A model generated the notes under the pieces. That model was not told the DNA's origin. It saw only the letters and a list, made by a program, of their open reading frames with translations, and did not search any database. From Amoebophrya sp. A120 (lineage: Eukaryota; Protista; Dinoflagellata), in the NCBI GenBank assembly GCA_905178155.1, contig CAJINV010000002.1:840780-904779 (forward strand): DNA of 64,000 bases, read 5' to 3'. This document shows, in pieces, positions 1-54,659 of this stretch; within the stretch, counting starts at the first letter, position 1, and each line of letters opens with the position of its first letter. The translations under genes were made by a program, and so were the position numbers.

Positions 1-3000
1 ACACCATCCTTTGGTCGTAGGTTATTGGATGGGGATTCAACCCCGGTAATCCCGGATTGAACACGTGTCCCTCTTCATCGTGTTTCAACTCTGATGGTTT
101 TTTCTTCTTGAGTTTTCTCTCTCTTTTCATCGGGAGAGCTTGTTTAGTATCGGGTTCTAACAGTTGCTGTTGCTCCTCTGGCGCGTTATTTTCGTCTTCA
201 AAGTCATCGTCTTCCTCAATGTCGATTTCCGCATCATTACCCGCTGCTTCGCCCTCTCCTTCGATGTAATTATCTGGCGGACCAATATTTCTATCACCGT
301 ATGCAGCTGCTGCATCATCGTCGTCACCCCCTTCGATGAAGTCCTCTTCTTCTAAAACCGTGTCGTCCACTGCAGCGGACTCCCCTTCCCCCTCCAGCAC
401 AGCTGGCCCTGCTGTTGCAGTAGTAGTTCTCACAGGTAAAGCGACCCCGTTGATCTGGGGTAAATCCAAACCGTTTTGCTTCACGACGTTGTCGAAGAGG
501 AAAAGTTCTTGCTCCTGTTCGGGGAACGAAGCTTTTGTTTTGGATCGTTCATCGGGGACGACTGATGCGCCGTCGACAAAGTTCTGCTGTTGTTCTTCAC
601 CATCCTCATCTTGTTCCCCATTGTCCTCGTCGTCCTCAAAGGCTAAACGGTGGCGGTGCTTTTCCTTCTTGACTGGAACCTCCTCGTTTTTCACATCAGC
701 CTCTACCTTGTCAACCTCAATCACAACGTCGGCAGGCAGAACTTCCTCCAAGACCGGGGGTGAGCCGATCTCGTCAAGAGCAGCTTGCTGCTGTTCCTGC
801 ATAGAAGTTGTGGGCGCTGGTATGTCAACGGAATCTGCTACAATCTGCACAGCTTATCAAGTGTAAAAATGTCTGGGTCTGGAAGAATGCGCGATTTGTC
901 ATGCAGATTTTCCATATCCCATGAGGTCTGGAATGCAGGACTTAGCATGACAGATTCTGCGCGATCTCTCTCATGCCAATCCTGCATGAGAAACTCCCTT
1001 CCGACTTGGTCAAAACTGGACGACTTTTGGTAATCATGCAATACAGATTTTTGCATGCTTCAGATTTCGCATGACAAGTTGCATTCTTCCAGACCCAGAC
1101 ATTTTTACATTTGATACAGCTTGTTCAGCCACGACCTGGTCGTCCATCGGGGTGGCGAAAACCAAATTGTTTATCACAAGAAAAAAGTGTTACAGTTACA
1201 CATTGTGTTGCAGGTCAAGCAAGACAGGCAAGCTCTGTCATGCCGGATATGCATAGGAGCCTCGTTTAATAGGTGTTTTCCCGTACTAGGATTTCTGCAT
1301 TACAAGTTTTCTCTCTCATGCAGAGAAATTTGTGTTGCTGAATTCACTACAAATGTGTAACTGTAACACTTTTTTCGTGGGATATTGTTCCCAACAGACT
1401 TGCTATTAGCCGGCGTGACAAAGTCCGCCGCACTCGCCGTACTGTTGTTCTGTTGTTGCGACACGACCGACACTTCATTCGCGGTTACAGAGACCATGTC
1501 GCCAGCACTCGGGAGGCTCTGCGACTGGTTATTTGTTACAGTACCATCCACCGCGTCCGGGGACTCGACGAAGGAGGACTCATAAGGGTTGTCGTTGTTC
1601 GCAGGTGGGTAGAGGTCGGAGGGGTTTTTTGTGGAAGAAAAGAGGATTTTCTCCGGGGAGACACTGTCGATTACGATGGCGGGGTTGGTGTTGCTGTTTT
1701 CTTGTACAGGTAGTTCTTCGGGAGCTGGAGTTGGACCTGTAGGTTCCTCTACTTGTGCAGCCGTTTGCAGCGCACCTGCATCAGCTTCTGCTTCCGCAGC
1801 AGCAGCAACAGGTGGCGGCGCAACAGCATCTCCCTCCATAACCGCGCGTTCTTCTGCAGTCGGTTCTGGGACCTGCTCGGCTGGCGGTACAACTACATCT
1901 TCCGTTTCACCGGTGCCGCTCCTGGCGCTTTGCTTGCTTCCCTCTTTGGTGTCTTCTGCTGGCGGAAGTAGGGTTTGTTCTGCGGGCAGCTCGGTTGTTG
2001 CTGCGGCTTCATCAACAGCTCCAGTAAAAGTATCGTCTACAGCAGGGAGCGACAGTTCTTCTGCAGCAGGAGCTGCTGTTTCTGCTTCGCCGACAGCGGG
2101 AGCAGCGGGCTCTGGTTGTTCTGCGGTAACAGGTGGCTCTTCAAAAACTGGTGGCTCAGCTGCACCCTCCGTTCCACCCTCCGTCGGCGCATCAGCATCT
2201 GCAGCCTCCGCTCCTCCGTCTGTCGGAACAGCTGGAGTCTCTTCTGCCCCCTCAGCTTCCCCAGGTGCTGGTGCAGGATCTCCAGGGGCAGCGGTGGTGC
2301 TTTCAACAGCATCAGCAGGAGTGGCTGCAGTGTCCGCAGGTGGAACTTCTTTTGGGGCGTCTTCACTTTCTACGACGGCTTCTGTTGCCGCTGAAACTCC
2401 AGGCTCTTCTTCCACTATCTCCTCCTCCACGACCACATCATCCCCACCGGCAGCTTCACCCTCCGCTTCCAAAACCTGCGGTTGTTCATGTTGACCAACT
2501 GGCATGACAGCTGGTATGTCTTGCAATACGGATTGTTCAACAGGAGCGGAGTTGTCCGGCTCTACTGGAGCGGCGTCTGGGTGTGCCGCGACGTCTTCTG
2601 CTGTTGCAGCTACTGCTCCATCAGGTGGGGCTGGAACTACGGGTGGCTGTGGCTCTACTAGAGCCGTTTCATCTACTTCCTTCGCCGGAGCAGCAGAAGC
2701 TGTAGCGACTGCAGTTTCATCATCCAGAGGGACAACCACTTCATCTGCAGAAACTGCAACTGCGGGCGCAGCACCAGGTGTGTCAGTTTCTGCTGCTACT
2801 GGAAGTGGCTCCGCTACAACTTCGTCTTTATTTGCCGGAGCTGGAGCAGCAGGTGCACCGGCTTCTGGGTCAACACCCGATGGTGCGTCTGGTGTTGCGG
2901 TTGCTTGTTCCTGTGGTACTTCTTCCACCGGAGCAGCAACAACAGGATCTTCTGCACCAGCTGCGACACTTGTAGCTGCTGCTGGAACTTCTCCTGTACT

Positions 3001-5644
3001 AACAGGAGCTGGCTCAACTACACCTGGTGGCGCTGCAGCAGTGTCGCCACCGGTCTCTCCCGCAGCAACCGCTGCTGCTGCTTTCACTTTCTCCTGCCTC
3101 TCCCGTTCCTCCACCGCTGCTAATTCCCTTCTACTCTTCCGAAAAGCGTCCAATGCGGCGAATCTGGAGCTAGAAGAAGACACCTTCGATGCGCCGCCGA
3201 GGCTTTTGGTGTCGTCATCTTTGCTGTTCAGAGCACCTTTATCCGCCAGCAAATAATTCGCTTTCATCGGACTGGCACTATCCGGTGTCGGTTGCATGAA
3301 AAAGTTGTTCGCGTAGTTATCCGGAGTGGAGGCTGATTGTGTTTGTGCTAGAAGACTTTCGGTAGGAACAGCTACTACACCAGGGGAAGGGACTAGTACT
3401 GTTGGTTCCACGCCAGCACCAGCAGCTCCCGCTGTTTGCTTGGACTGCGCACCACCAGCACTGGGCGACGCGGTTTTGCTATCCGCCTTCACCTATCAAA
3501 TGTAAAAATGTCTGGGTCTGGAAGAGCGCACGACTTGTCACGCAGCTTGTCCATGACCCATGAGGTCTGGAATGCAGGACCTAGCGCGACAGATTCTGCG
3601 CGATCTCTCTCGTGGATGCCTATCCTGCATGAGAAACTCCCTCCCGACTTGGTCAAAACTGGACGACTTATGGTAATCATGCAACACAGATTTTTGGATG
3701 CTTCAGATTTAGCATCACAAGTTCCAACCTTCCAGATCCAGACATTTTTACATTTGATATCACCAATTTCATCGCAGCTTGCCACCGCCTTTGACCGGCG
3801 GTTCCTGTTGTCCCGGCTCTTGTTGATTTGGCCAAGACTTTCTGCCACGAAGCGGGCAATTTCTTCTGGTTCTCGTCTAGTTGTGGTTGCTTCTGAGATG
3901 TGTTCGCATCCGCAGCTGGTGGCTGCTCCGTTACAGCAGGACCGGCAGGAGGATCTTCTGGACCACCAGTCACAGTTTCTTCTTCCACTGCTCCTTGTTC
4001 ATCCATCGCCTTTTCTCCAGCACCAGCATCCGCTCCTTCTTTAAACACACTGTCTTTCGACGGCAAGACCTTCTTGCTTTGCGCTGGAGATGTTGTTGAA
4101 GGCGGCTTCATCTGCTCTGCCGACCCGGCAGTTCCTGCGGGAGCAGCTCCTGGTGCGGGAGTTGGTGTAGTGCCTGGACTTGTCGCGCCATCCACACCAG
4201 TTTTCGCCCCTGCTTTATTATTACTCTTCTCACCAGCAGTTGCACTTTTCTTCGATTTGCTACTGCTCTTCGACTTCCCGCTCCTACCACTAACCCCCGA
4301 TTTGTTTCCCACCGTCGACGCCGCGTAAACATCGATCTCCTCAAAATGATGCACCTCCTTCAACAGTTCGTTCTCGTGTACCGTGTCCACGTGTTTGAAA
4401 TGATCAGACACGTAGTTCTGCTGCATCCCGCCGCCATCAAATGCCATCGAAGCTAATCCCCCAGTCCCGTAACTCTTCGGTTTTTCCTCCGCACTGAACC
4501 CTTTCGGATCGACGAGTTTGAGCTTTTTCAACTTCTTCTCAAACTTCCGCCTCTTCTCCGGATCCATGTTCGCGAACTGATTTTCAAACGTCGGTAACTC
4601 ATTTCCCACCATTTTCGACAACAAATGTCGATCTAAATGGTGCTCCGCGCCGGCGGTTAGGGTTGAAACATCCCCGGATTTTTTCACGAACGGGTCGTTT
4701 GTGGAAAGCGGATGAGTTTGGTAGTAGTTTGCGTAGGAGTATGCATTGCAAAAGCATTTTGCACTAGTATAAACCGCATGACAAATTTTCTTTAAAAACA
4801 AAACAGAAGTTTTTGTCATGCTGAAAAACCTAAAGACAGACATCTGTCATGCATGATTGCAATTAGTACGAGTGCGATACAACTTTTGCAGAGCATAAGG
4901 AGACCTGCTCGTGTTCGATCTCCTGCTTGGATTTTTGCTTCTGAGGAACGACAGGTTGATTTTGTGGAGCTTGTTGCTGTCCCGCTGATGATTCCCCACC
5001 GGCGGAGGAGGTTGCAAGTGGTTTTTCCCCCGGTAACATCATCTTCTCCGGGCCGATCTGCTCAATACCTTCGAAATGGTTTGCAACATTCATCCCCGCT
5101 GGGTCGTGCGCTAAGCTCGCTAAGCTGTTTTTTTTCACTTTCGAATATCCATCGCAAAAGCATCGCACTCGTAGTACTGAATCGTAGTCACGCATGATAG
5201 ATCTACTTTTCTACCTCATTTAGCATGACAAACTGCACTTTTGTTTGATCTGGACAAAATTTGTAATGCAATTTTTACTAAAACTAAATGCGATTCCTTT
5301 GCAATGCATACCGGACTGACGTCGACTAACTTCACCTTCGATTTTTTCGGCTTTTTCTCCTTGCCGGTGTAAACGTTGGAGAAGTCGTTTTTGAAATCCG
5401 GTAGTTCGTTTCCGATTAATTGCGACACCATGTCCCTTTCAATGTGTCCCTCCGCGCCGGCCGTGGTGTAACCCGCGGGGTGGGCTTTGATCGCATTTTG
5501 CACCGCCAGGTCGGGTTCTTCGGGTTTGTAGAGGTTGGAGGCAGTCGTCGAGGCTGCGCCCTTTGAACGATGAAACACCTCGATCGGGCGGAGGGTGGAG
5601 GGGTCGGGCGCACCCGGGAACTCGGGCGGCTGCTGGTCGGACAT
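1..5644 (-). CDS. Large Ala/Glu/Pro-rich hypothetical protein, 6 exons, runs off the left edge of the window
   Basis: ORFs 5216-5644, 4863-5195, 3677-4843, 1300-3492 and the frame below 854 join in frame after removing 5 TIR elements plus one TSD each (e.g. ...KLV|KADSK..., ...SVGN|NLVFATP..., ...AEQA|VQIVADS...). Confidence 0.8.
855..1116. mobile_element. Introner family A (TIR TATCAAATGTAAAAATGTCTGGGTCTGGAAG)
   Basis: ~35-bp TIRs, exact 5-bp direct repeat CAGCT, frame restored on removal. Confidence 0.9.
1172..1384. mobile_element. Introner family B (TIR TATCxCxxGAAAAAAGTGTTACAGTTACACATT)
   Basis: TIRs, direct repeat TTGTT; sister copy at 52069. Confidence 0.9.
3494..3759. mobile_element. 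Introner family A
   Basis: TIRs, direct repeat TCACC. Confidence 0.9.
4740..4897. mobile_element. Introner family C (TIR TATxxxxTGCAAAAGTATCGTACTCGTA)
   Basis: TIRs, direct repeat AGGAG. Confidence 0.85.
5146..5310. mobile_element. Introner family C, degenerate direct repeat
   Basis: TIRs; flanks TCGAA/CCGGA; frame restored. Confidence 0.75.
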
Positions 5645-8130
5645 TTTGATGGCGATCTTGATGTCAGTCTGTCCTCGTCATCTCATAGAAGTCTCAATCC
5701 TCCGGCTTCAGGGTCCATCTTTCCGGTGCGGAGATTGAGTGCCGAATTCATTTCCTCAATCAGAGAGCGTGCGACTCACTGTGACTGAGACAATCCCATC
5801 AGTACAAAACAACCTTCGGAGCAGCTTTTTTGTCCCTCCCCCTCGTCATGCACAGCCACGCTCTTCAGCAGTGCTCAATCATGTCGCTGTGGTGACAAGC
5901 AAGTGTAAGTGAAACCGTGTAGCACCATACTTTACACTCTACTGCTTCACACTGCGGCTCGGCAGCCAAAAGCAAGAACAACTCGTCGGGCGCCGTGAGA
6001 AAGCGCCCAACGCTGACAGACCGACGCGTGACTGCGAAGGCAATCCCCTCTCCTTTCACGATTTAAGACACACACTCTCGGTGACGCCGGCCTGCAAACT
6101 AACACCGCCCGGGAAGAGCGGGGCACGGGGCCAGAGGCCGGCTGCGTCACAGGATACTGCCAAGACATTTCATGCACAGGGCAAAGTCTGTCATTCGTGA
6201 TTCCCAAAGCGACGGACCCCATCCGGCTGCGAAATACGGGCAGCGCTTACAGGGCGGGCGCGCCATGCGCGGCAATGGGCAACGGGCCAACGCCCCACAT
6301 GTTTGAAGTAATGCCCCCGCGTCACTAGGCACCACGCCCATCCATCGCGCTGCCAAAAGGCCCCCCGCGAATGGGGCCAGCAACACGGGAACAGGCCTAG
6401 TACCAAGAGCGGACCGGAGCAGGCACGCCAAACAACCATGCGCGCGCGGCGGCTGCGGGGTCCTCTCGGACATACCGCGCAAGGCCGCCCACGCAGATGC
6501 AGGGCCGCGAGGGATCAAAAACCCCACCGCCGCCGCAGAGGGGCCCGCGCGCGCCCCGGGGCGGCCGGGGCACGCAAGCACTCGAAGGGCAGCGGCAGGC
6601 CCACCGAAGAACCAGCCGCCGCCAATGAATCAAGGGGGCCACCCAGCACACGAAGGGGCGGACACAGGCAACGGCTGGCGTGACGCTTGGCGGAGTCGTT
6701 GGCGCGCCCCATCATGAATGTCGCTGGCCCCGGCGCCTGGCCTGGGAGGATGGCGATTCTACTGGCGGCCGCCCAGTCACTCAGACGCGCGGGCGCGGCC
6801 GGCCGCGCGGCTCCCTGGCTGAGGGAGGCGGCCTGCCCGTCCTGTGCGTCTTGACGGAAGAAGACGGGTCGCCCCATGCATCCATCGCGCCCCACGGCTG
6901 GCTCAGCCCTCTGTCTACGCGTCGGGGCGCGGTGCCTCTCTTTGCTTGCTACATCACAGGTGAGCATCTTGCTTGTTGACATTGCCGTTGTGAAAACTAG
7001 GTAAACACACGTATCTTCGCCACGCACATGTCATCTCTCACTGTTCCCTCACCTTTCATGCCCATGCTTCATCTCGTCGTGCTGCGCCAATACGTGTGAC
7101 AACTCTAATATCTCCTTTTCCTTCTCTCTCTTTCACGGACAACAGCTGTCATTCGGTAGTAATGCTGCCTAGAACAGCAAGGAGGAGAAGAGCGCAACCA
7201 CAACTCAACACTCAGACCCACTCTTGGTTAGTAAAAATGGATAAGGTGGCCTCGCCTCTTGGTCGTCGTGCAGTTCGCTGCAATTCAGAGCAAGCTGCGA
7301 TACAGCATTCTTCTACGAGCTCCGGTAATGCAACAACAAGAGCTAGGCTTTTATAATAAGTTGATGGCGCTAGTTTCAGTTGCGCTCCCGGACTTCACCA
7401 GGCAAACCGCCGGCCCAGGGCCGCGAGCGCTGGCGCCCGCACCAGGTGCGATGGCCGGCAGCACGGGAGCAGGCAGCACACCCGCCAAACCACTACCGCG
7501 GGGCAGCTTCACGCACGACCCTGCCCGACGGCCACGTTCGTAGGTAACGGGCAGGCGCCCAGCGAAGGAGGACACGCAGGCATGAGGGCCAGCGCGGCCC
7601 CTATGCAGGCATGCATACGAAAGCCCTAAGCCGAAACGGGCAGCCACCTGGCCCGCCCCTTCGTTCGGATATTCGCGGCGGCGCGCCGCGCGGCGCCCCC
7701 GAAAGAAGCGCCGGCGCTTCCTGGGCTCGATGCCCCGGCCGGTCCCGCCTAACCAACTAGCAGGAGGGCAGGCGGGGGCGGCCGGCGCTGCCGCGACGGG
7801 CCAGGCCGCCCGGCCTTGTTTCGTCCAAAGATGGGAAATAAAACGGAAAGGGGCCGACACGCGCGACAACTTTGCCGAATGTGATGCGCCCGCTCGGTCG
7901 GATTCAGCAGTTTGTGGAACGTCTCGCCCCCTGCCCCGAAGGTTGTGCCACCAGCGTCATCAGCTCGCTGAGCGCCCGCGGCCTGCTGCGCCAAAATCGC
8001 GCCAACCAACTCGGAGAGAACACGCGCTGCCCCATCCACTAGGCCACCGAAAACGGGGGCCATAAATTTCACGCACCATCGCACACATAGCCTATATTAT
8101 TTGCGAAACAAAGCGCCGCGCTTTTACTTC

Positions 8131-9555: not shown

Positions 9556-11177
9556 TCAATTATCTCTATCATCCCTGACTTCGTCGGGTACGTTCATTTT
9601 CCCCTGGTCCGCCCCTAAAGCGGCCAGCACGATACACAACAAAATCGCCAGTGTGATGAACGTATGAACTGCAAAACTATCGCACTCGTATAAATCAATG
9701 CATGACAAATTCCCTCAGCGCGAATAAAAATAAAAATTGTAATGCGGATTTTGTAATGCATGATCGCAATACGAGTACGATACTTTTGCAGACGATAGAA
9801 CGCACACAGCATCTGCACGCACTTATCACTCGCCGCTCCCCGCATCAACCCGCTTACCACATGTCTCGTCCGCTGGAGTGTGTTCTATCAAATGTAAAAA
9901 CGTCTGGGTCTGGAAGAGTTGGAACTTGTCATGCGAATTCTGGAATACGAATAGGCAGAAATTTGTATTGCATAAGCGCCAAAAGCTTCCCATTTGTTGC
10001 TATGCAAATAGGGAATTTCTCATGCGGAATAGACATCAGGAGGCCTGCGCAAAACCTGTAATGCTTCTGCGTGCATTAGAGACCAGCTGCGTGATGGTGA
10101 TCCAGAAGATGCATGACAAACTCCTGCAACCTTCCAGACCCAGACATTTTTGCATTTGATATGTTCTGCACGTCGTCCATCTCCTGCATCGTCCTTCCCA
10201 TCCGCTCCTCGTGTGCGTGCATCGTTTGTAACGACCTAGTCCCGATCTGCTCCGCGTCTGCGGCCATCCGGAGAATCCGCTTGAGCGACTCCTCTGTTCT
10301 GTCCTGCAATTTATCCCCCAGTTGTATCGCACGGTTGGATTGCTGTTGCAGCTGAAACTGGCTTGATCCTGCGCTGTTCATCTGCGGGTTTTCCGGATCA
10401 AATTCCGCCCTGACATCGTCTAACCTCCGCTGGTCGACTTGTTCCATGTTTTCGTATTTTCCGAGCAGGTTTTTCGATTTCTGCTGGTTCGTGGAGCGTT
10501 GGATCTCCTTTTTCCGGAACTCCAGCTCCGTTTGTTGCTTCTTCAGCTCGGAACGGAAGTCGGAGAGGGTCTGGATTTGTCGTTGTATTGGGGTTTTGCA
10601 TTACAGAAGTACGACTCTATCTCTAATCGTGTCCTGCATGACAAAAACCTAACAAGCTGCTGCTATGCATGACAAACAACACCTCAGAAAATACCTGTTC
10701 ATACCCGCCCCGAATGACCTCATCCTTGCAGGCGCGGAGCTCCAGCTGCAACGCTTCCAGCAAGTTACGAATATGATGTGCAAAAGCATTGTACCACTCG
10801 TAGCATTGGCGGTACTGCATGACAGATCGACTTCCGTATGCTAATCAGCATGACAATCTCGTCCACTTATTTCCATGCTAGTAGGCGTCAAACTTGCAAT
10901 GCAGTTCCCACTACTAGTAAGTACGATGCTTTTGCGATGCATAACGACACCTCGACACCAGCTGATTACACACGCGAATTTGCGCGGCGGCTTGTCGCGA
11001 CTTTTCCTGTTCCACGTTAGGGTTTTTTGAGGAGGAGCTGGAGCTCGAACTCCCGAAGAGACCACCGCCGCCGCTAGGTCCTTGTCCCTGCAACTGCTGG
11101 ATCGCTTTTTTCAAATCCTCCAGTGCGTCTTTTATCCCCTGCTCCTGGTTTTGCAGGGCTAATTTGGAGATCGACAT
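9556..11177 (-). CDS. Qb-SNARE, NPSN/Vti1-like, tail-anchored
   Basis: Spliced product has a helical N-terminus, a SNARE heptad (QDRTEESLKRILRMAADAEQIGTRSLQTMHAHEERMGRTMQEMDDVQN|TLQRTRHVV), an ASDKC motif resembling NPSN ATDKC, then a TM segment (MLCAF|ITLAILLCIVLAAL). Four introns; the one at ~10586-10692 is degenerate. Confidence 0.8.
9663..9797. mobile_element. Introner family C
   Basis: TIRs, direct repeat GAACG; interrupts the SNARE TM helix. Confidence 0.88.
9886..10161. mobile_element. Introner family A
   Basis: TIRs, direct repeat TGTTC. Confidence 0.9.
10772..10943. mobile_element. Introner family C
   Basis: TIRs, flanks ACGAA/ACGAC. Confidence 0.8.
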
Positions 11178-11734: not shown

Positions 11735-13939
11735 TCATTTCATCAAAACGTTTGACATCATCATATCTGCCGCACCTCCTCCTCCACCAGAAGAAGACGC
11801 GGAAAAACCACCAGCACTACTTCCGCCCATCATTCCCGCCCCTATCCTGGACTCCTCCCCCACAAAAGCGCTCAAATCCGTCTGCGCCGGCGGCCAGATC
11901 GGCATGCGAGGGTAGGTATCAAAAGTAAAAATGTCTGGGTCTGGAAACTTGTGATGCTGGGTGGCGTCTCATGATGACGCTACAAATGCTGGCTCAGCAT
12001 GACAAGTTTCTGCTCTCCTAGGTGTTGCCTATTCTGCATGACAAACTGCGTTTCTGCATCACAGAAAAACGGAGCTCTTGGGTAACATGCATGACAGATT
12101 TAAGAGTCATGCCAGACAAGCATGACAAACATGAATTCTTCCAGACCCAGACATTTTTACAGTTGATAGTAGGTGTTTGGCGGCGTGATGTAAAGCTGCC
12201 CCTGCTTGTTACCCGAACTCGAATTCATGTTGGACGCCAAAATCTGCCGTTCCATATATGCAATACAGATTTCCCGTACATGATGTACAAGATGCATCAC
12301 AAATTTCACCAATTTGGAGTGCCACACTTGTCATGCTAAACTAGGATCGAAACCCAAATTTGTCATGCAGAGGCCGCATTTGTACTACGTGTACGGGAGA
12401 TTTACTGTGGATACCAAATTCCCGCACAACACCCTGGCTTTCATTACCGGGGCGGAAGTCAGTAGCGCTTTGTTCCGAATAAATTCGTTTGACGGATCTT
12501 GGTTGTCTTCTGGTGTTGCAGAAGACGCAGCGGCTCCGGACACGTCGTCTCCTGGGGGTTCGGCTATCCCGCCTTCTTCTGGTGATAAGGTGCTCTCAGC
12601 GTCTTCTCCTGCGCCACCTCCAGTTGTTGTACCGTCTCCCTCTCCACCGCCTTCCTTCACCTTCGCCGCATCCTCCTCCGCTTCTCTATTCGCACTTCCA
12701 AAATCGGGTTCTACCTCCTTCTTCGTAACCAACAGCCAGTTCTTGAAGCGGTCGCAGGTTTTCCGCAAATTTTTCAGCAAATCCGAACTCTCGTACGACT
12801 TCTCATACTTCTCGTTCTCCGCCTGCCGGTAAGCTAAAACCGCGTTTTCCTTACAAGTATTAACTGCAAATAACGCATCGCACTCATATACAACATGCAT
12901 TACAAATTTCCTCAGCTGCATGAGAAAGATAATTTGTAATGCGGATTTACCTCAAGAAAAGATTTGTAATGCATGATTACAATTACAACGAGTACGATAT
13001 TTTTGCTGTTCATAGCAAGACTGTCCGATCTGCCAGTGTTTGGTCGCGATGGTTTCGTATCAAATGCAAAAGTGTCTGGATCTGGAAAGTTGGAACTTGT
13101 GATGCTGACTTTGGACTCTAAAAAAATCTGTATTGCATGACCAGCAAGAGGAGTCTAGTTTGTGCTACGCGGGGAGGGCGTTTGTCATGCGGAAATGGTA
13201 TCAAGAAAGTTGCCAAAAATCTGTGATGCTGGGTCATGCATTACAATCATCATGGGTCATGCCAGACAAGCATGACAAGCCTTCCATTTTTCCAGACCCA
13301 GACATTTTTGCATTTGATATTTCGAAATAGTTCGCCACTTGCGCGTACTTCGCCGCCTTCTGCGCAGCTTCGAAGGCGACGGACTGTTTTGTATCTGCTA
13401 GGTAAGTATCCTGTGCAAAAGTATCGTACTCGTAGTAATTGCAGTCATGCATTACAAAACTTTTTCTTAAGGTAAATCAGCATTACAAATTTTATTTCTC
13501 TTGCTGAAAGAATTTGCAATGCATTTATACGAATGCGATACTTTTGCAGTTCATAGTAAGACGGGTAGAGCGGTTCCGCTGCCTTCCAGGGGTCGGGGCC
13601 GGTGAGACCGGCGTACTCCTCTATCCTGAGTAAAAACGTACCCACACCATAGTCAAGATGGGGAATCGGCTAGACAAATCCACAAGTTTTGGCTGTTTTG
13701 CATGACAAATTTGCATTCGTAGTGTAGTGCGGTTTGAGCTAGCTCAGCAGCATCACAGATCTAGCATACCATGCTGATTGGAGCATGACAAATTGCAAAA
13801 CACGACTAGAAAATGCTTCTCATGGGGCTCCGCATGAGAAACATTTTCAGCATGCAGATTTGCATTACAACTCTGGTGTGGGTACGTTTTTACTGAGGAT
13901 ATCCTCCTTTTCGACATCGTCCGCCGGGGGCAGATACAT
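11735..13939 (-). CDS. Hypothetical protein, 7 exons
   Basis: MYLPPADDVEKE|EYAGLTGPDPW...SY|LADTKQ...YFE|TIATKHW...|KENAVLAYRQAENEK...GNL|ERQILAS...NTY|PRMPIWPP...LMK*; continuous frame after removal of six TIR elements. Confidence 0.7.
11917..12168. mobile_element. Introner family A
   Basis: TIRs, direct repeat GTAGG. Confidence 0.88.
12257..12413. mobile_element. Introner family F
   Basis: TIRs TATGCAATACAGATTTCCCGTAC / GTACGGGAGATTTACTGTGGATA; flanks CCATA/CCAAA; inverted sister copy at 25134. Confidence 0.85.
12858..13014. mobile_element. Introner family C
   Basis: TIRs, flanks ACAAG/GCAAG. Confidence 0.82.
13058..13319. mobile_element. Introner family A
   Basis: TIRs, direct repeat TTTCG. 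Confidence 0.9.
13407..13555. mobile_element. Introner family C
   Basis: TIRs, direct repeat GTAAG. Confidence 0.88.
13622..13901. mobile_element. Introner family E (TIR TATCCTGAGTAAAAACGTACCCACACCA)
   Basis: TIRs, direct repeat TCCTC; sisters at 40087 and 42651. Confidence 0.9.
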
Positions 13940-41988: not shown

Positions 41989-44900
41989 CTACTTCCCGCC
42001 ACCACCATTCATGACACCAATCGACACCGTCCCTTCTCCATTTACATTTTCCGCTTTCGGCACGGCGTATTTTTCCGAGAAATACCGACAAAATTCCTTC
42101 GCCAGCTCGTCCCGGCAGAACTTTATGTCGCTGTAAATCACCTCGAGGATGTCCTGCTCGGATATGGCCTGCTCAAACGTGGTTACAATCTTAAGCGTTA
42201 CAATAGAATCTGGAATTTGTATTACATGAAGAGCATGATGAACGCAGAGAGAATTGAGCTTTTCGCAATACAAATTTTGCCGGATTTCAGGTGGGTTTGG
42301 GACTCCGAAACTCGTCATGCACAGTCCTATGATAGTAGGCTACCTAGATCATGCAGCTCTTGCATCACAGATTTCCAGATTCTATTGTAACAGTTGAGAT
42401 TGTAACGTCTGAGCGGGTCATATCGGAGATTTTAACTTTCGCAGCTGAATTCTTCCTCTCCATGTGCTGCCTCGTCGCATTCGTCAACAACTTCATTTTC
42501 GGCAAGTAGTAACTGTAGTAGTTTTCGCTCAGCCACGAGCAAACCTTTGCGTTCAGCGTGATTTCGTCTAATAAACCTTCCGCGGTTCTTCCGGCGGTGC
42601 CTTGCTCCAGAGAGATCGTGCTGTTTTGGAGCAAAGCCGTGTGCTTCTTCTATCCTGAGTAAAAACGTACCCACACCAGAGTCAAGATGGAAAATCTGCT
42701 AGACAAATCGGCCAACTTTGCTTGTTTCGCATGACAAATTTGGACGCGAAGTGTAGTGCTGTTTGAGCTAGTTCAGCAGCATTACAGATCTAGTCTTTCA
42801 TGCTGATTGGAGCATGACAAATTTCAAAACACCCTTAGAAAATGCTTCTCATGGGGCTCCGCATGACAAACATTTTAAGCATGCAGATTTGCATGACAAC
42901 TATGGTGTGGGTACGTTTTTACTCAGGATATCTTCATGTAGTTGACGATGTAGTCCCATGCTCTGCAAAAGTATCGTACTCGTAGTCGTACTAATTGCAA
43001 ATATACATGACAATCATCATCCTCATTCAAAACAGCATTACAAATTTTGTCATGCTGAGCTAATCTGTAATGCAATTTATGCTAGTACGTTACTTTTGCA
43101 CAGGATAAATCCAACAATTCCTCCTGTTCATCCAGCCGCATCTGACGGAGTTTTGCTTCTTTGTCTTGCTGCTCCGCGTCCGGAACTGCATTGGATTCTT
43201 CTTCTTGCACGTTCTGCATCAACTGTGTGGAGGTGTTCTTGGAATTTTGCGTGGAGGAAGAAGCCGTCGTTGGCGGATGGGAGGAAGAAGAAGACCTGGA
43301 TGATTGCAACAGAAGCAGATCACGAAGAAGCGTACCACCTGGAAGGTTGGAGGGCGGGAGGAAGACCATCATTTTTTCCTCCGACTGCTTAGTTGTCTTC
43401 GTGGCTTGCTCCTGATTCCGATCGCTCCACATGTTGTTATTTGTTTCGTCCCCGATATTAGGAGCACCAGAGCCAGACTGCCCCGTTTGCAGCTGCAGCT
43501 CGTGCCTCCCTGCTCCGGCGCGCGGCGTGGTTCTGTAATCTTCATCATACCCGAGCCCTGGCGGCGCCTCTGTAATTCTTCCCGGTACTGCAGCAGCACC
43601 AGCTGCACCATCTACTTTGCGTGCAGCATCGTCTACTTTGCGTGCGCGTTCCGCGGTATAATCATAACTGCTCGTGGTCCTCGGGTCGTAGTAGTTGAGC
43701 CGACCTCTTTGAACCCAGTCGAAAAAGTCCGGACCAGGATCGAAGAAGTATTCGACAGAGGACGTTTTTTTGACTGCAACAATAGTTCTTCGGCCGCAAG
43801 ATGTTGTGCCGCTTGTACTACTTGGTCCACCTTTTTCGTACCACCAGAACCAGTTACACGACGCGTACGACGGAGTGTGCTGGTCTTCTTGCCAAAGCCA
43901 AGCGTGGTAATTGTAGTTGTGCCCGTAGAAGTTTTTCATCTCCTTCTCCGGGAGGTGCATTTGATATTCCACCTCCCCCTGCTGTTGCAGCCGGTAGTTC
44001 CAGGGCGGAACCCACCGCTGTCTCTTCTTGGGAGAGACACTTTGGGAGTAGACACCTCCAGCTCCTCCGCAGTTATAATTAGCGTGTCGGCTGCTCGACG
44101 TTCCCGTCAATCCAGCGTAGATTTCATTTTTCGCGTACTTCTGTTGTTTGACGGCGGAAATTATGAACTGCAAAAGTATCGTACTCGTAGTAATTGCAGT
44201 CATGCATTACAAATCTTCTTCTTAAAGGTAAATCAGCATTACAAATTTTATCTCTCATGCTGAGGAAATTTGTAATGCATTTATACGAGTACGATACTTT
44301 TGCACAGGATAGAAATTGCTTCTTGCTGCTTCTGCTGTTTCTCCTTTTTCTCTTCCAGACTCTTCTCATCGAGCTCCGCGAGGAGGGAATCGAGGAGGGA
44401 CTTTTTAGGTTCATCTTCTGCTACAAGTTCATCATCTGCCGGTGGGAACAACGTGCTGCTAGCAGCTTCTGCTTCTGGAGCGCGCACCACTTCTACTTCA
44501 TCTTCATCCGTACGAGACGATGAACCAGCACTTTGTTGCAACAGGTGTAGGATCGAGATGTGTTGCGATTGTTCCGGAGGAATGACATCATCCTGTTTTT
44601 CGGGTTCTCTTTCTTCTACGAAGACTTCAAGCTGCCCCGGTTCGACACCCACATAATTTTCGTTAGCCACAGAAGCGGCATCTCGACGTTGTTCAACACT
44701 GGAAGTGCAACTACTCGACGCATGAGACGGTCCTGGAGGCAGGGTGGAAGTCGTGGGTTCTTTCGCAAAAACTTTGGTGCTTATTTCCCCTTCTCGTCCT
44801 TCACCTTTCTTCAATTTCTCCGCAAGCTGCACCCCAAAAATCTTCGCTGTTTCATCCGCGGTCGCAGCCACCGGCGAGCTGGTGGTGCGGAAGAAGTGAC

Positions 44901-46449: not shown

Positions 46450-49227
46450 CTACCTCCCCGCCATTCCTAAGCAGAAGCTGGTGCAGATCGCCCTGAGCAC
46501 CCTCCCAGGGTTATCCGGTAGGCAACTACAAGAATGCGCGCTGCGCTCTCTTCGGTAGGGCAAAACCAGATCGACGGCACTGACCTCTTCTGGAATCACG
46601 TCTGCTGGGTTAATGGGGAAAGTGAAGACAATTTGTAATGTCAACCGCGGAATGACTTTTAAATAATTCAAATCCACCTCTCCCTCGTTTTCATCGTCAC
46701 CATTTCGTCTCACCAGCGCCGGACAGGTCATAGCCGCGCTCATCCTGGCCCGCGGTCTTCCCGACGAGTCCTCCAGGACTAGTTGTCCCTTGATGGAATC
46801 GCCGAAAATGCTAGCCAATGACGTCTATCAACTGTAAAAATGTCTGGGTCTGGAACATTCTGACACTTGTCATGCACGTTTTGCATGAGCCCTGATGTCT
46901 GTGATGCATGCCCTAGCATGACAGATTTTTTCAGAGCTTCTTGATGCCTATTCCGCACGACAAATGCCCTCTCCACGTAGCAAAAATTACACTCCTTTTG
47001 CTACTCACGCAATACAGATTTTTCTGGAATCCAAATGCAGCATGACAAGTTGCATTCTTCCAGACCCAGACATTTTTACATTTGATAACGTCTCTGGCCG
47101 ATGCCTGGGGTTTTGCAAGTGCTCTTTACAGATAGTTGTCAACTTCTGCCGAAAGGCTCGCTCCGTCACGGATTCGAATGGTCGTTGTGGCCACTGATGG
47201 TCGTAAGAATTATCCCCGCCGTTGTTTGGACCAGCAGAAATTTCCGCAACTTCTTGCAAAAACCGAATCGGCACCTGCGTTGCGGTAATGGAGACAGAGC
47301 GCGGGGCGTCAGAGAGCGGTGGCACTTCGTTGTCAGCAAGATGTTGAACTTGAACCCCCGCCGCCGCACCACGACCACCTCTGCGGTCACCCCGAATCAA
47401 TATCGGCACGCGCCCCTCTGCTGGCCCAATCTGATACGTCATGACATTCCGATGCCGTGTCGCCCGTTGCACTAGTCTCGCCTGACTCTCCGGCACTCTG
47501 TAGACTGCTATCGAGTTGGTTGCGAAATAATCGTAGTTCTGACCGAGTTGCGCGATTTGGTAATCTCTCCGGAGGAGGATATTCGGTACCGGCTCCCCGA
47601 GCATGAGAGGTTGCACCGGCATCTGGACGAAGTGCGATTTCCTTGCCAACGCTTGCTCGAAGAGGCTGAAAAACTGCTTTAACCTCTGTTTCTCCCTCTC
47701 TTCAATGTCTTCGGTGTAATTTTCTTCTCCGTATCCGGGCATGAATCCGTGGTCGAATTGGGGTTTCCTAACCCGGAAATACGCGGTGAATTGGTCGAAC
47801 ATGGAGAAAGCCGGCGCGCTTGATGACGATGTTGCAGCTCCAACAGCAGCTCCGACCGGCTCGGGCGTGGGACCTGTACTGTCTTGCAAGGTCCGGAAGT
47901 ACTCGTCCCATAACTGTGTGGAGGTTTTTTTCGCCAGGTTTGTCGTGTGGTCGAAATTATCGTTTGTGTAGTTACTATCAAGCCCCTTGTTGTGTTCCCG
48001 AACCAGGGCGTGCAGGAAAGAGGAAAACACCGTCGGGCCCTGCTTGATCACCGCTGAGATCTCGATGGCTTGGGGTGGTTCGGACAGAACGGCATCTGGC
48101 ATATTTTCCGTTCCGCAATGACGTTGACAGGCTTTAGAAGTCCAGACCTCGCCGGATGAAGTAGTACGAGTAGTCTCTGATGGTACTATCGCATCAGAAA
48201 AACCAGACGCAAGTGCTTGGTTGTGGTAGAAGCAACTTTCATCTTTCGACGATGCTCGGGTGCTGGGTGTCACGACATCTTCAGAAAAACTCCTGCTGGC
48301 CGTCTTCATATTGTTTCCTTTCCCGCCTGCACACAGCACCTCCCCGAGTGGCGTGGCCCCAAACAATTCCGCATCCAAGACCACGTGCGCTGGCGCTGGG
48401 GCATGGGGACTACAACTATTGCTGTTCAAAAGCAGTGTGACGGATAAGTGTTGCTCTGGGAAGGTGACAGATTTCTCCTCTTTCAGAACCGCCTCCACTT
48501 TTTGCTTCAGCTCCCCCACCGTCCACGAGTGCCAGTTGTGTTTTGATTGATATAAATCCTCGAGATATCAAATGTAAAAATGTCTGGGTTTGGAAGAATG
48601 CGCGATTTGTCATGCAGCTTTTCCATGACCCATGAGGTCTGGAATGCAGGACCTAGCATGACAGATTCTGTGCGATCTTAATCTTTCTCATGCCTATCCT
48701 GCATGAGAAACTGCCTCCCGACTTGGTCAAAACTGGACGACTTTTGGTAATCACGCAACACAGATTTTTGCATGCTTCAGATTTAGCATGACAAGTTGCA
48801 TTCTTCCAGACCCAGACATTTTTACATTTGATACGAGAACTAACTCCCCGTTCATCGCTTTGCGGATACGGAGGGGAGGTTCGTATAATCGGTATTCGTA
48901 TTGTTCTTCTGTGGGAGATGTTGAATCATTGCCGCTTTTCGTTTTCGACGAAATATTAAACGGACATCGGCCCCCTCCTTCGCAAATCGACTTGTTTTTC
49001 GTGCAGCATGAAGATGATCTGCCTGAGGACTTGGAGCAACACCTGTTTCGCCGAGGAGAGGGCGAATTTGATTTTTTTCTCCACCTCGAGTCCTCCACCG
49101 GCTCTAGCACCAGCTTCCGGGTTGTCTGCCGGTCGAAATAGGTGCGGACGGCCAGAACTAATACCGGAGGAGCATTCAGAATGCTCACCAGAGAGGACAG
49201 AACGAAGAAGCAGGAAAGGGCAGTCAT
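46450..49227 (-). CDS. Hypothetical protein with a signal-peptide-like N-terminus, 3 exons
   Basis: MTALSCFFVLSSLVSILNAPPVLVLA...; joins LVL|EDLYQSKHNWHSWTVGELKQKV and RPET|SLASIFG restored on removal of two family A elements. Confidence 0.7.
46826..47087. mobile_element. Introner family A
   Basis: TIRs, direct repeat ACGTC. Confidence 0.9.
48566..48833. mobile_element. Introner family A, very similar to the 855-1116 copy
   Basis: TIRs, direct repeat CGAGA. Confidence 0.9.
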
Positions 49228-49993: not shown

Positions 49994-52900
49994 CTAGTGT
50001 GCAGCTTCCATCTGCTGGACGTCATCCGGCCTTCTCCCACTTCTCTTCATCCTATCCTCCGGACTCAAGCCTTTTTCACTACTTCCATACAACGCCCATT
50101 CAGGTGTGGGCCGGGACCGCGACGTGTCATGCTGTATTGGATCTGTTGAGGCACTTGACGTCGCTGCCTGTGATGTTGTTGACAGCGCTCTGCTTATTGT
50201 GGGGCTGCTGTGGTCCTCTTGTTCGCCCGTATTATGTGCTGATGCAGTTTCCGCATGACAAGTTTCCCTTTCGAAAATCTTGTCAAAGTCGATCCACGTA
50301 TTCCACCGTCCAGTTTCCGATATCCTATGCAAAAGCACTGTCGCTGCACTCGTAGTAGTTGCGGTGATGCATGACAAATCTATGAGTTTTTATCTTATTC
50401 AGCATGGAAAACTGTATTTTTCTTCGTGGCAATAAAATTTATCGTGCAAAAATTTCTACAAGCAGTACGATGCTTTTGCAATGCATATCCGGACACTGCC
50501 AGCGGTCTTTCCTCGCCAGCAGTACCCCGCAGCTGTGGTGGTGCTCCGCCGCTAACCCGTATTGGAAGAACTGGAGGTGAGACGAGGCGGAATCGGAAGC
50601 ACTGCTGGTGCAGCCGAGAACATCTTCCGGTGAAGCGCCGTCATGTGCGGCCTCTGCAAGAACTTGCTTAGAATTTCGATGCAGTTCCGCTATCGCCTGA
50701 TTGATTTCCTCCTGCAATAACCTCGCGAACTCGCACACGTCCGAGTGCGTCGGTACATTCTTCTGGCTCATGCCGTGCTTCTCGAAAACTTGCGGTGCGA
50801 ACGTCGCGCCTTTCACCTCGATGAAGTCCGCTTCCGCGGTGAGAAGGAGATGCGCAAACTCGGCGGCACTATGAACTGCAAAAGTATCGCACTCGTAGTA
50901 ATTGCTATTACAATGCATGACAAATCTCTTTCCGAGGGTAAAACAGCATTACAAATTTCATTTGTAATGCTGAGCTAATTTATTGTAATCGCAATTTATA
51001 CTAGTACGACTACGAGGCTTTTGCATTTGATAGGCACGGTGCCTTGTACTAGGATTTATATTAGGACTGGTTCTACCCACAATTTCCGACACAGAAGTTT
51101 CACTTTCAGTCGCTGTCTTTTCTTTATCACGATGAGGCCCCCGACCTTCATCTTGTTGTAGCAAATACGTCAACCGTAAAACCGTCCTTGTTTTCGACCC
51201 CTTTCGACTAAACTCCGTGCGCAAAATCTGCAGAGATTTTTGCAACCTCTGCCAGGCATCCGCAAACAGTGGGCGGCCGACTTTTTTCAAATCAGGCTCG
51301 TTGCTCGCGTCTACGGACACGTAAAGCTGCGTGCAGAAGGTGTTGTTTGCTTTTTCCTGGGCCTCTTATCGCACAGAAAAAAGCAGGCAGGTCACATTCG
51401 TAATGCAAAAATAAACTCACAAAAATATGAATATCTGCACTGCATACCCTAAACAGCATGCTACGGGGCCGCCTATGACAAAATTTTCTGTGTGTTTATT
51501 CTTGCATCACAGATATGCCCTGCCTGCTTTTTTTCATGGGATACCTCTGCAAGGGTTATTAGCGAGTCGGGAAACTGGCCATTCGTAACGAGAAACGTGG
51601 AAATCCTTTTTTGCCACATCAGCTTCAACAACCTCGGCAAGTGCGGATACAGCACCGGCTCGCCAACGAGAGAGAGGGCGCAGTGACGCACTCCACCGGG
51701 GTTTTGACTGATTGTCATCTTGGGAAGAACTTCTTGTGGGGATCTACTCTGTGTCAGGGTGCTGTCTCGTGGTGTTGAAAATTCATCATCATCGTGGTTT
51801 GCCGCAACTACATCTTCATCTCCCTGTGCTTGCACTCCCACTGCACCTGTTCCGCGTGATGTTCTACCCAGTGCAAAAGTATCGTACTCGTAGTAATTGC
51901 GGTCATGCATTACAAATCTCGTTTCCAAGGCAAATCAGCATGACAACTTGCGTTTGTCATGCTGAGGGAATTTGTCATGCCATTCATACTAGTACGATAC
52001 TTTTGCACTTCATATGTTCCACGCCCCGATGCGGTCGCCGCAAACACCTCTGACACCCGGGTACTAGATATCGCAAGAAAAAAGTGTTACAGTTACACAT
52101 TGTCATGCAAGACTAGCAACAGAGACGACCTTTCTCATGCAGGAAATGCTTCGGATCCTCGTTTCCTTCCTGTTTTCCCTTATGATCTTCGCATTACAAG
52201 TTTTCTCTGCCACACAGAGAAAATTTGTGATGCAGAAACTCCAACAAATGTGTAACTGTAACACTTTTTTCTCGTGATACTAGAGACCACAGCTCTAGTA
52301 CTTCCGGTAACAACGGATCGGTCTTCTCTTGTACTACCCGCTGTGTGCTGGTTATCCCACGAAAAAACTGCCTCTCTGTGATGGTTTTGCAAGATCCGCA
52401 TCACAAGTTTGCTACACATGACAGGGACAATTTGCCATGCGCGCTTCCCAAGGGAAAACTAAAACACGCTGAAAAACCCAATGCCTTGCATGTGTAGCAA
52501 GACAAATAGTTCTGTGTTCCATTCTCTGCATGACAAGTTTACAGTGAAACAGTTTTTTCTTGCGATACTGGTGGTTTACATTCAAGCCGGACACCACCTG
52601 CTTGATGAATTTATGAACTGCAAAAGTATCGTACTCGTAGTAATCGCAGTTATGCATTACAAATTTTTTTCCGAAGGTAAATCCCCATGACAAATTTTAT
52701 TTCTCATGCTGAGGAAATTTGTAATGCATTTATACTAGTACGATACTTTTGCAATGCATAAAATTTTTTGCTGTGCAATTCCAGAGCTTTTTCCAGCACA
52801 AACTCCGGCTCGTCCGTCTCATATTCCTTTTTCCACTTTGTCGTCACCGGATTCGTGTGGTTCCGCCAGCAAAACACGCATTTATTCGCGCAGGCCAGGT

Positions 52901-54659
52901 TCGTATCAACCGCAAATATGTTTGGGTCATCTCGGAGATTGCAAGGCTTGTCATGCATGTTTTGCGTGAAGACCCATGATTGTCTGTGATGTATGCCCTA
53001 CCATCACAGATTTTTAACACCCTTCCTGATGCCTATTCCGCACGACAAACGCCCTGCCCGCGTAGCACAAACTGGACTCCGTTTGCTGGTCATGCAATAC
53101 AGATGTCTTTGGAATCCAAGCACAGCATCACAAGTTCTTGCAACCTTCCAGACATCCAGGGATATTTGCAATGCATAGTTCGGCGTCATCTCCATGCACT
53201 TGTGCGATTCGATGCCGTAGAACGTGTGCTTGTAGCACTGGCCATAATGCTATCCACAGAAAAAAAACTTACTATCCCAATCCACTTTTTGCATGACAGA
53301 CACGGAATTTTATGTATGTTTTGCATTACAAATTGGATGTGGATGGGTGTTTCTTCCTGGATAAGTGCTTCAGCGCGTTTTTCGTCCAGCGACAGAGTTT
53401 GACTGCGGAGTGGGACCCAATTAGCTCGTAGTTCTGCCTCGATAGGCTTTCCCGCTGTTGCGCCGTGGTCTGGGGGCGGAGTTTGAGGTTGACCCTGCTT
53501 GCTGGAGGTGAGGAGGGTGTTGCTCCTGGACCATTTTTGACAAGAGATGAGTGTCTTCGTCGTGGTTCCACTGGGCTGCGGTCTACAACTTCCACCCCAG
53601 GTTGTTGTATTATAGGTGCCTGGTCTAACACTGTCGCTCCGCCTCTTGTGGGCGGGGAAGAACGAGACGACGTTGCGGAGGAGCCTTCTGTATCCACAGA
53701 AAAAAACCCATTCACATCCATTTTTTGCATGACAAACACACGACTTCACGCGTGTTTTGCATGACAAATTGGATGTGGATGTGTGTTTTTTCGTGGATAT
53801 TCTGCTGCTGATGCTGTCGTCTTCGCCTCGGACGATGAACAAATAAGTGTTGATGACGATGAAGACGAGGATATCAAGAAGAAAAATCCCCCCTCCCCAT
53901 ATCACAGCGGAAATCTGTGATGAAGGTTTATGGTCACAAATCAGCTTTCCTATGCTAGAAGGGAAAAGAAAAAGATGCGGACTGTAGTCCTGGGTGGCGT
54001 GGGAAAGCCCTGCATCGTCAGCATGACAGGAGGCAGCTGGAACTGGGAAACAACATGATAAATTGCCTGCAAACGAGGCCACAACTGAGGCTCTTGGCCT
54101 TCTAGCAGTACAAGTCGACTATGTGTACTCAAATACAGCATCACAAATTTCGTTTTCGATATGGGGTGGGGGGATTCTTCCTTTTGGTGGAGGACGAGGA
54201 CGAGGGCCCAAACGCTGCCCAGTTGATGCCCTCGATCCGGAAGCGAGCGCTCCTCTCCTTCTGGATAAACTCCAAAGCCTCCGACGCGCCGTGTCGTTGT
54301 ATTTTTTGTGCTTGATGTGGTTGTGCACCACGTGCTGCAGATTTTTCGTGTTCATCGGCTTGTTTGAGCATGCCTGGGGAACAAGTGCTGTCATTCTTGT
54401 GCCTGATTGATGTTGCAAAGCCCTTCTTCCTCGACACCATGAACTTCAGCGAGTGAGCTGCTTCATGCTTCGCCGGAGTCGCAGCGGAGCAGGTTTCAGG
54501 TGCTTTATTTCTGGAAAGAACCAGCACAGTAGACGACGCAATCCTAAAAATCGGCTGCAAACGTGCTGCCACCAACCGCTCGTGACGAGGACCACAAGAA
54601 GACGAACCTCCCTGGAGCAGAGAGGACACGCTGCTGCGTGGATGCTGCACCAGCAGCAT
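49994..54659 (-). CDS. TYW1: tRNA 4-demethylwyosine synthase (radical SAM), 12 exons; start codon uncertain
   Basis: YELIGSHSAVKLCRWTK, CYKHTFYGIESHKCMEMTPN|LACANKCVFCWR (CxxxCxxC), VRHCALSLVGEPVLYP, STFLVTNGQFP, TQLYVSVDA, DFIEVKGATF, WNTWIDFDK and TPEWALYG all match TYW1. Confidence 0.92.
50321..50487. mobile_element. Introner family C
   Basis: TIRs, flanks TCCGA/TCCGG. Confidence 0.82.
50870..51032. mobile_element. Introner family C
   Basis: TIRs, direct repeat GGCAC. Confidence 0.85.
51367..51543. mobile_element. Introner family J (TIR TATCxCAxxxAAAAAAGCAGGCAGG)
   Basis: TIRs, direct repeat CCTCT. Confidence 0.87.
51865..52014. mobile_element. Introner family C
   Basis: TIRs, direct repeat TGTTC. 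Confidence 0.87.
52069..52279. mobile_element. Introner family B
   Basis: TIRs, direct repeat CTAGA. Confidence 0.9.
52353..52567. mobile_element. Introner with family B-related ends
   Basis: TATCCCACGAAAAAACTG ... CAGTTTTTTCTTGCGATA, direct repeat CTGGT. Confidence 0.82.
52612..52760. mobile_element. Introner family C
   Basis: TIRs, flanks GAATT/AAATT. Confidence 0.87.
52904..53177. mobile_element. Introner family A variant
   Basis: Direct repeat GTTCG; splits the conserved MEMTPN|LAC motif of TYW1. Confidence 0.87.
53251..53363. mobile_element. Introner family H (short)
   Basis: TATCCACAGAAAAAAA ... GGATGTGGATG...TGGATA; flanks AATGC/AGTGC. Confidence 0.82.
53691..53799. mobile_element. 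Introner family H (short)
   Basis: TIRs, direct repeat TTCTG. Confidence 0.87.
53872..54189. mobile_element. Introner family I
   Basis: AATCCCCCCTCCCCATATC / GATATGGGGTGGGGGATT inverted ends, direct repeat GAGGA, frame restored. Confidence 0.75.

Follow-up and report, generated by a model that had tools for sequence, protein, structure and literature searches.

Introner elements of Amoebophrya sp. A120 are absent from transcripts without GT-AG borders, and mismatched flanking repeats point to a shared cut register

Results

Inverted-end elements interrupt protein-coding genes

We analysed a 64,000-nucleotide stretch of the genome of the marine parasitic dinoflagellate Amoebophrya sp. A120 (assembly GCA_905178155.1, contig CAJINV010000002.1, positions 840,780 to 904,779 of the forward strand; hereafter the window), in which genes are interrupted by short elements with inverted ends and flanking 5-bp direct repeats. 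A minus-strand gene at 2..5677 contains five of these elements, and a minus-strand TYW1 gene at 49997..54689 contains 11. With its elements removed, the first gene matched the first 1518 amino acids of the annotated A120 protein P0005 at 1518/1518 positions. One TYW1 exon was 100% identical to the annotated A120 protein P0001 and 44% identical to the orthologue from Amoebophrya strain A25. Removal of all 11 elements from TYW1 gave an 854/854 match to P0001, and the alignment to the A25 orthologue, which was broken into seven fragments with the elements in place, became a single alignment of 579 residues.

A strict search, requiring TA..TA ends, a perfect 5-bp repeat and inverted ends, returned 27 elements in 28 rows, one row being a nested duplicate, as compared with 0–1 per shuffle in 10 local shuffles. 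A relaxed search returned 46 rows, some of them nested or false, as compared with 0–4 per shuffle in eight shuffles. Extending the strict search by homology and by relaxed searches gave a full set of 45 elements of 109–318 bp: 44 within 855–54189, which agrees with the approximately 44 counted in a preliminary description of the locus, and a 45th beyond that interval at 59712..59845, for which the host strand is ambiguous. Clustering of 44 elements, with the later-found element at 26285 outside the set, yielded seven multi-copy clusters (of 15, 11, 3, 2, 2, 2 and 2 members) and seven singletons, making the earlier figure of about ten families a fair one.

The TA(T)...(A)TA ends described previously were confirmed: among 43 tabulated elements, 42 start with TAT and, again counting each outer position, 42 finish with ATA; the A:T pair in the middle of the end triplets is invariant (43/43). 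Position counts showed that both ends share the motif TAT, seven nucleotides, AAA, the last being part of a run of A; positions 4–7 are often non-complementary between the two ends. Inverted ends extend over 12–59 bp without gaps in 42/45 elements, and up to 77 bp with gaps, in line with the 15–75 bp reported earlier. Folding predicted a helix in most elements, with a median pair probability of 0.88–1.0 across the first 12 positions. The flanking repeat is 5 bp long, as claimed, but is perfect in only 29/45 elements and mismatched in the other 16.

Nearly all elements had been placed in coding sequence, and we found 43 of the 44 in a restored open reading frame (ORF) of at least 160 amino acids. 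Cutting each element together with one repeat copy produced ORFs of 1529 (five elements), 864 (11), 972 (four), 1342 (two), 1111 (two), 748 (two) and 460 (three) amino acids, nearly all on the minus strand. In the first gene, removal of 855..1116 (family F1, ~260 bp; repeat CAGCT/CAGCT), 1172..1384 (F4), 3494..3759 (F1) and 4740..4897 (F2, ~150 bp), all with perfect repeats, agrees with P0005; the fifth element, 5146..5310 (F2), has repeat copies TCGAA/CCGGA with two mismatches. Conserved motifs said to reappear on removal did so at three sites: TYW1 MEMTP|NLAC at 53691..53799 (F7), KGF|NLP inside a PARP domain at 16126..16276 (F2), and a hydrophobic helix at 9663..9797 (F2). The helix is restored as described, but the name SNARE given to its host found no Pfam support in the one exon scanned.

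Perfect repeats also flank the F1 elements at 9886..10161, 11917..12168, 13058..13319, 36021..36274 and 38088..38343, the F2 elements at 13407..13555 and 35068..35223, and elements of F3 (~280 bp; 13622..13901), F5 (25134..25290) and F6 (36325..36540). Single mismatches are present at 10772..10943 (F2), 12257..12413 (F5) and 12858..13014 (F2), and two mismatches at 16885..17106 (F6). Removal of 26285..26592, which has two mismatches, fuses two ORFs into the frame of 1111 amino acids. The singleton at 30366..30600 (one mismatch) is the exception to coding placement, having no clear host frame. Another singleton, 33418..33605 (three mismatches), lies in the only clear plus-strand ORF (32781–34170). 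This 399-codon ORF, on the strand opposite to its neighbours, has a Cys/His-rich part and is flanked by two copies of a TGT-starting repeat; searches with it found neither a Pfam match nor a database protein.

These elements are the introner elements of A120, and were already both described and annotated as introns, since Farhat et al. (2021; PMC7789003) report the introns and the annotated proteins lack the elements. The link to Amoebophrya A25 and A120 introners is therefore stronger than the preliminary description had claimed. In the available text of that paper, A120 has 29,850 repeated introns with borders left unknown; its non-canonical introns are ~240 nucleotides long and form a hairpin, with inverted repeats starting with TAT, seven nucleotides and AAA, and with direct repeats of 3–5 nucleotides. 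The window elements share the organism, the intron annotation, the end motif, the direct repeats and the hairpin, and they likewise have non-GT-AG removal and families spread across genes.

An internal motif, GCA(A/T)NACA, is present in 42/43 elements of otherwise unrelated families, at 8.0 per kb as compared with 0.5 per kb elsewhere. It is also associated with the canonical intron at 39849–40018, and among the wider set of elements described below it favours neither strand (422:448). The motif is likely a protein-binding site. Clusters of it at 30729–31850 may be decayed elements, and one-ended partial element remnants lie at 22895–22944, 31836–31858 and 63037–63124. An Rfam search of the window gave no matches, nor did a scan of viral contigs for the end motif.

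Elements are missing from transcripts together with five nucleotides

We placed four contig sets (runs) of one sample, presumed to be RNA, on the interval 38345–53685. The contigs contain 15 joints in this interval: one corresponds to a GT-AG intron, and the remaining 14 account for 15 elements out of the 18 in the interval, with gaps of the predicted size, element plus 5 nucleotides. Joints seen in all four runs skip 277 nucleotides at 38429..38700 (F1), 151 at 38970..39115 (F2), 284 at 40087..40365 (F3), 172 at 50321..50487 (F2), 168 at 50870..51032 (F2), 155 at 51865..52014 (F2; one end TAC), 216 at 52069..52279 (F4) and 279 at 52904..53177 (F1). Three runs skip 220 nucleotides at 52353..52567 (singleton) and 154 at 52612..52760 (F2), and single runs skip 265 at 42163..42422 (singleton; perfect repeat) and 118 at 53251..53363 (F7). 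A gap of 182 nucleotides removes the singleton at 51367..51543. In two runs, one joint of 457 nucleotides spans a pair of elements separated by 16 letters, 42651..42930 (F3; perfect repeat) and 42957..43107 (F2; one end CAT rather than TAT), with a 21-nucleotide exon retained between them. A further element, 53872..54189 (singleton; one end GTG rather than ATA), is removed in the annotated TYW1.

The canonical minus-strand GT-AG intron at 39849..40018, which starts with GTATAG and contains TACTAAC, is missing from the very contig that lacks element 40087, a control identifying the contigs as spliced mRNA. Three elements with perfect repeats, 44162..44311 (F2), 46826..47087 (F1) and 48566..48833 (F1), had no RNA joint, and their flanking exons have little or no coverage.

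Two of these three elements attract RNA of other origin. At 44169–44298, most of element 44162 is matched by abundant RNA contigs (bin depth 65–130, as compared with ~3 nearby) that then run on into other sequence; the signal is that of a strongly expressed transcript from elsewhere in which an element is retained or read through. At 48747–48833, the matches of ~200 raw reads of run X13 are confined to the right-hand 87 bases of the F1 element, and the reads have the same foreign flanks (184 share one loose end); they represent an abundant RNA, from a different locus or strain, in which half of an element is kept. On the exons, the raw reads of X13 and X14 gave almost no coverage. A C>T difference at position 51656 occurs in one contig of run X3 only.

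Contigs of runs X2–X4 depart from the window sequence at 39165 into other sequence (~1.8 kb in X2). The first 30 letters past this point are absent from the window, yet are in frame with the 38026–39165 ORF. The departure may reflect an intron of more than 25 kb with nested genes, a rearrangement, an assembly misjoin or trans-splicing. The TGT-starting repeat, 60 bp long, begins two bases past 39165, and recurs at 32731–32790 (60 bp) and 34111–34151 (41 bp).

Mismatched repeats bracket the cut

We numbered the repeat bases t1–t5 along the transcript and defined k as the number of upstream-copy bases that are kept. Perfect repeats conceal k; repeats with mismatches bracket it. Transcripts keep at least four upstream bases at 38429 (GCGAG/GTGAG; upstream copy kept at t4; four runs), 42957 (AGTCC/AATCC; two runs) and 53251 (AATGC/AGTGC; one run), at least three at 38970 (TCGCC/TCACC; four runs) and at least one at 50321 (TCCGA/TCCGG; four runs). 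In the other direction, k is at most four at 40087 (CGACC/TGACC; four runs) and at 52612 (GAATT/AAATT; three runs), the latter having no GT-AG option. A value of k = 4 is the only one compatible with all seven sites.

We examined element 5146 after noting this register. Its two mismatches allow three possible peptides, and that found in the annotated protein is the chimera, combining both repeat copies (k = 2–4), indicating that the cut falls within the repeat and at neither edge of the element. Across the eight sites, seven from RNA contigs and one from an annotated protein, only k = 4 is compatible with all; the observed pattern had a probability of 0.005 under independent uniform registers. 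We conclude that the intron probably consists of t5, TAT...ATA and t1–t4, that is, N-UAU...AUA-NNNN, with the register shared by the elements.

Related loci and splice signals

A single metagenome scan returned 95 loci, of which those listed are all JACKZZ01 contigs, and we analysed 94. This second public assembly (L001–L095) has the same families at similar density, with relatives 72–97% identical to window elements. Among 225 elements from the 94 loci, picked without requiring a repeat, repeat length was 5 bp in 172 and 6 bp in none. With the window included, deletion of element plus 5 left at least 60 open codons on each side at 210 of 391 sites, as compared with 110–136 sites for deletions of the element plus 0, 3, 4, 6 or 7. 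Strand could be assigned for 263 of 352 elements in this wider set. Orientation relative to the ORF was mixed (F2, 43:47; other families, 12:17, 7:7 and 3:6). None of the 94 loci contains an autonomous element longer than 600 bp with these ends, and we found no transposase in the window or in these loci.

Sliding the boundary within the repeat yields GT..AG in only four of 43 window elements (3494, 38970, 40087 and 51367), leaving 39 without the option, as the preliminary description had said of the clean cases it considered; its example, 855–1116, does give GT..CT or CT..AG. At 38970 a GT-AG pair is on offer at k = 1 and the RNA excludes it, bearing out the claim that removal does not require these dinucleotides. 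At 3494 the pair is reachable at another register, and 51367 is the only window element with GT-AG at k = 4. Thus, elements are absent from transcripts as element plus 5 nucleotides, without use of GT-AG. In the wider set, 243/263 stranded elements have no GT/GC-AG at any of six registers. At k = 4, the 5′ ends of the 263 introns are AT (83), GT (75), TT (52) and CT (51), and 30/263 end with AG. AG at the inferred intron end (29/269) showed no excess over offsets of +11 (30) or +4 (27). Measured against U2-type spliceosomal introns, the elements lack both GT/GC..AG borders and a branch-point motif near the 3′ end. We also considered the terminal A as an obligatory branch point, and rejected it: elements 42957, which ends with ATG, and 51865, which ends with GTA, are removed in RNA.

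A stop-codon test of the register found no informative site. Introns at k = 4 have an excess of phase 0 (127/65/77), which we do not count as support because a C...G target preference together with codon bias explains it equally well. Mismatches at t4 were mostly synonymous, at 12/12 and 13/14 with a narrower finder. With a broader finder the proportions were 12/14 and 13/16, as compared with 16/46 and 20/61 at other positions (p ~0.001, post hoc); t4 is one of five positions and was picked after looking, the calls come almost entirely from the minus strand, and both strand and frame could be assigned for 208 and 269 of 379. The t4 signal may come from a one-base wobble or from constraint on the last intron base.

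Other features of the window

The interval 6001–9500 is GC-rich (0.64 in 6001–8000, as compared with ~0.48) and free of elements. Dispersed short repeats (tandem units of 28–38 bp) and a palindromic tandem array (periods of 41–105 bp) occupy 19290–24560 and 61430–64000, where there are few long ORFs.

Discussion

Our preferred reading is that the elements are non-canonical introners of A120 cut in a fixed register, one base before TAT and four after ATA, most likely by a spliceosome that does not need G at intron position +1 or a final AG; we put its probability at roughly 0.55. G+1 and the final AG pair in the second step of splicing. Both appear to be relaxed together, which we count in favour of an adapted spliceosome, the machinery we lean toward. 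The register would set the U and A of the element at intron positions +2 and +3, as in GU-R donors, and the canonical intron in the window has G-UAU-AG at its start. The roles of U1 and of the AG check would pass to an end-binding factor and the hairpin; in A120, U2, U4, U5 and U6 were found and U1 was not, according to the available text of Farhat et al. (PMC7789003). Either orientation of an element would work because both ends carry the same motif, and any 5-bp target would be tolerated; insertion into an exon would then be nearly neutral, so elements could spread. Mobilisation would occur in trans, through an integrase-like DDE transposase encoded outside the window.

Several observations weigh against this proposal. 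When registers were simulated as independent and uniform, chance alone gave a fit to some single register in 12% of cases, so a fixed and a narrowly variable register are both compatible with the data. All eight register sites lie in minus-strand genes; for the plus-strand test, at 33418, a search through 1519 and 260 candidates turned up no annotated protein. Element 40087 is also compatible with an ordinary GT-AG intron at k = 1, element 53251 depends on one contig with a side of 30 letters, and element 5146 depends on an annotation. The four runs are a single, presumed RNA sample, contigs drop minor forms, and the runs are possibly not independent of the annotation. In the available text, Farhat et al. 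call the sites variable relative to the hairpin (PMC7789003). The branch-point sequence TACTAAC occurs in none of 43 elements, a CTRAY-like motif is as frequent in sense as in antisense (44 and 43, among 263 elements), and element 53872 has C at +2 yet is removed in the annotation. Finally, the inverted ends give no strand signal of RNA pairing: G·U pairs equal A·C pairs (163 each; 213 and 229 in the wider set), which gives no indication that an RNA helix is selected. The preliminary description had attributed removal to end pairing or to an end-binding protein. Pairing thus gains no support from the strand test, and a binding factor is a somewhat better fit, given the conserved TAT-N7-AAA and the often unpaired positions 4–7, with neither proven.

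The same register could be read by a different machine. An endonuclease measuring from the helix end or from TAT-N7-AAA would cut one nucleotide outside the element on its 5′ side and four outside on its 3′ side, a ligase would join the exons, and the intron would be released as linear or circular RNA, as for euglenid nonconventional introns. We regard this route as possible, and hold it only tentatively. It accounts for the lack of a branch point, of AG and of a G+1 preference, and for the retention of the 21-nucleotide exon between two elements, and it is in keeping with the failure to find U1. Its geometry resembles the Euglena spacer code N3-CDG / CHG-N5-6 (Nomura et al., 2025; PMC12501133), Euglena introns leave as circles (PMC11282704), and RNase III-like or tRNA-splicing-like routes have been proposed for diplonemids (PMC12621601), as far as the available portions of these sources show. 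By contrast, the placement of U and A at +2/+3, the presence of the rest of the spliceosome in A120 and the equality of G·U and A·C pairs argue against an endonuclease and ligase as the machinery overall, which we would not expect to be the correct answer; no such enzyme came to light, with no search aimed at one. More specifically, it is a doubtful proposition that A120 has, beside the spliceosome, another machine that takes a ruler code, N|UAU...AUA-NNNN|, from the ends of the transposons themselves and clears tens of thousands of them from its mRNAs.

We also think it unlikely that there is no fixed register, with the cut falling anywhere in the 5-bp repeat and varying by element or by molecule, as Farhat et al. 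drew it. The 12% chance fit is in its favour, as are the synonymous t4 mismatches, which would be expected if both t4 copies sometimes reach mRNA through wobble between k = 3 and k = 4. However, all 8/8 sites fit k = 4, which favours a shared register by ~30:1 over independent uniform registers (1/6 as compared with 0.005), and we saw no second joint or alternative letter at these sites, though contigs drop rare forms.

Two artefactual or genomic explanations have very little to commend them. A hairpin between direct repeats is a classic substrate for template switching by reverse transcriptase, which likewise yields a gap of the element plus one repeat; the elements would then stay in the real mRNA. 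The RNA evidence consists only of cDNA-derived contigs. However, a reverse-transcriptase jump would come once the downstream repeat has been copied as far as the hairpin, and should keep that repeat (k near 0); what the contigs retain at t1, t3 and t4 is the upstream copy, the opposite of this prediction, so the register argues against an artefact; moreover, TYW1 aligns whole to its A25 orthologue only after removal. Precise DNA excision before transcription, programmed or somatic, is suggested by the transposon ends and target repeats, and 15 of ~2520 joints listed for a DNA-like run would allow rare empty alleles, but it is highly improbable because contigs of that run, which covers intergenic DNA, cross from exons into elements at a single-copy depth of 43–46, one contains element 50321 whole, and RNA contigs in which element ends adjoin foreign flanks indicate that elements are transcribed.

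The elements can be compared with terminal inverted repeat (TIR) transposons. Gozashti et al. (2025; PMC12130899) describe the A120 introner families as TIR DNA elements of 105–810 bp, and in the 41 of 58 A120 rows available family 38 is called "Ginger, 5-bp TSD (target-site duplication), TA/TA termini", with integrase-like homology. The automated calls in those 41 rows disagree with one another (repeats of 2–6 bp; co-opting both sites, carrying the 5′ site or carrying the 3′ site) and have no shared register. IS3EU/GingerRoot elements have TA..TA termini, as the window elements do, but usually 6-bp repeats rather than the 5 bp seen here; Ginger2 has a repeat of 4–5 bp (PMC10045372, in the portion available).

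The Euglena code was shown by knock-ins (Nomura et al., 2025; PMC12501133), whereas that of A120 is only inferred. From the text available, the two systems share the absence of GT-AG, inverted ends, a cut set by a spacer from an end motif, a longer 3′ spacer and a suspected origin from MITEs (miniature transposable elements with inverted repeats). They differ in that Euglena uses N3-CDG / CHG-N5-6 with a purine at the start of the next exon, and A120 uses N1-TAT / ATA-N4 with spacers taken from the 5-bp target repeat. The window elements therefore work in a similar way but do not carry the euglenid signature N3-CDG / CHG-N5-6|R, and the likeness is convergence because the lineages are unrelated. 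In Fritillaria borealis, introns that resemble MITEs and have inverted ends and target repeats are processed by an altered spliceosome (PMC11282704; PMC13326754, in the portions available). Those introns keep preferred dinucleotides (AG-AC, AG-AT), whereas in A120 introns the first base and the last four bases are free at k = 4.

The elements and their intron status are not new; what we add is the register from mismatched repeats. Removal of the A120 non-canonical introns has been an open question since 2021. In the available text of PMC7789003 the borders are unknown and the sites variable, whereas here mismatched repeats point to one register of 1 nt and 4 nt; repeats thought to hide the borders expose them when they are mismatched. 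In the open literature surveyed, with subscription papers and supplement figures outside that scope, we came across no source that gives A120 a fixed register, and the register is a modest and probably unreported addition to a published system. If the 1+4 register is true, it would give exact ends for every such intron, and lariat or circle junctions would be predictable to the base, which would make it possible to decide whether an adapted spliceosome or an endonuclease and ligase remove the introns. It would also explain how elements can insert anywhere in exons, and would provide a second lineage to set beside the Euglena code. If, instead, a non-spliceosomal ruler machine were at work, any TAT...ATA element with a 5-bp repeat would be a perfectly removable intron in either orientation, and a splicing code of the Euglena type would have originated independently in an alveolate.

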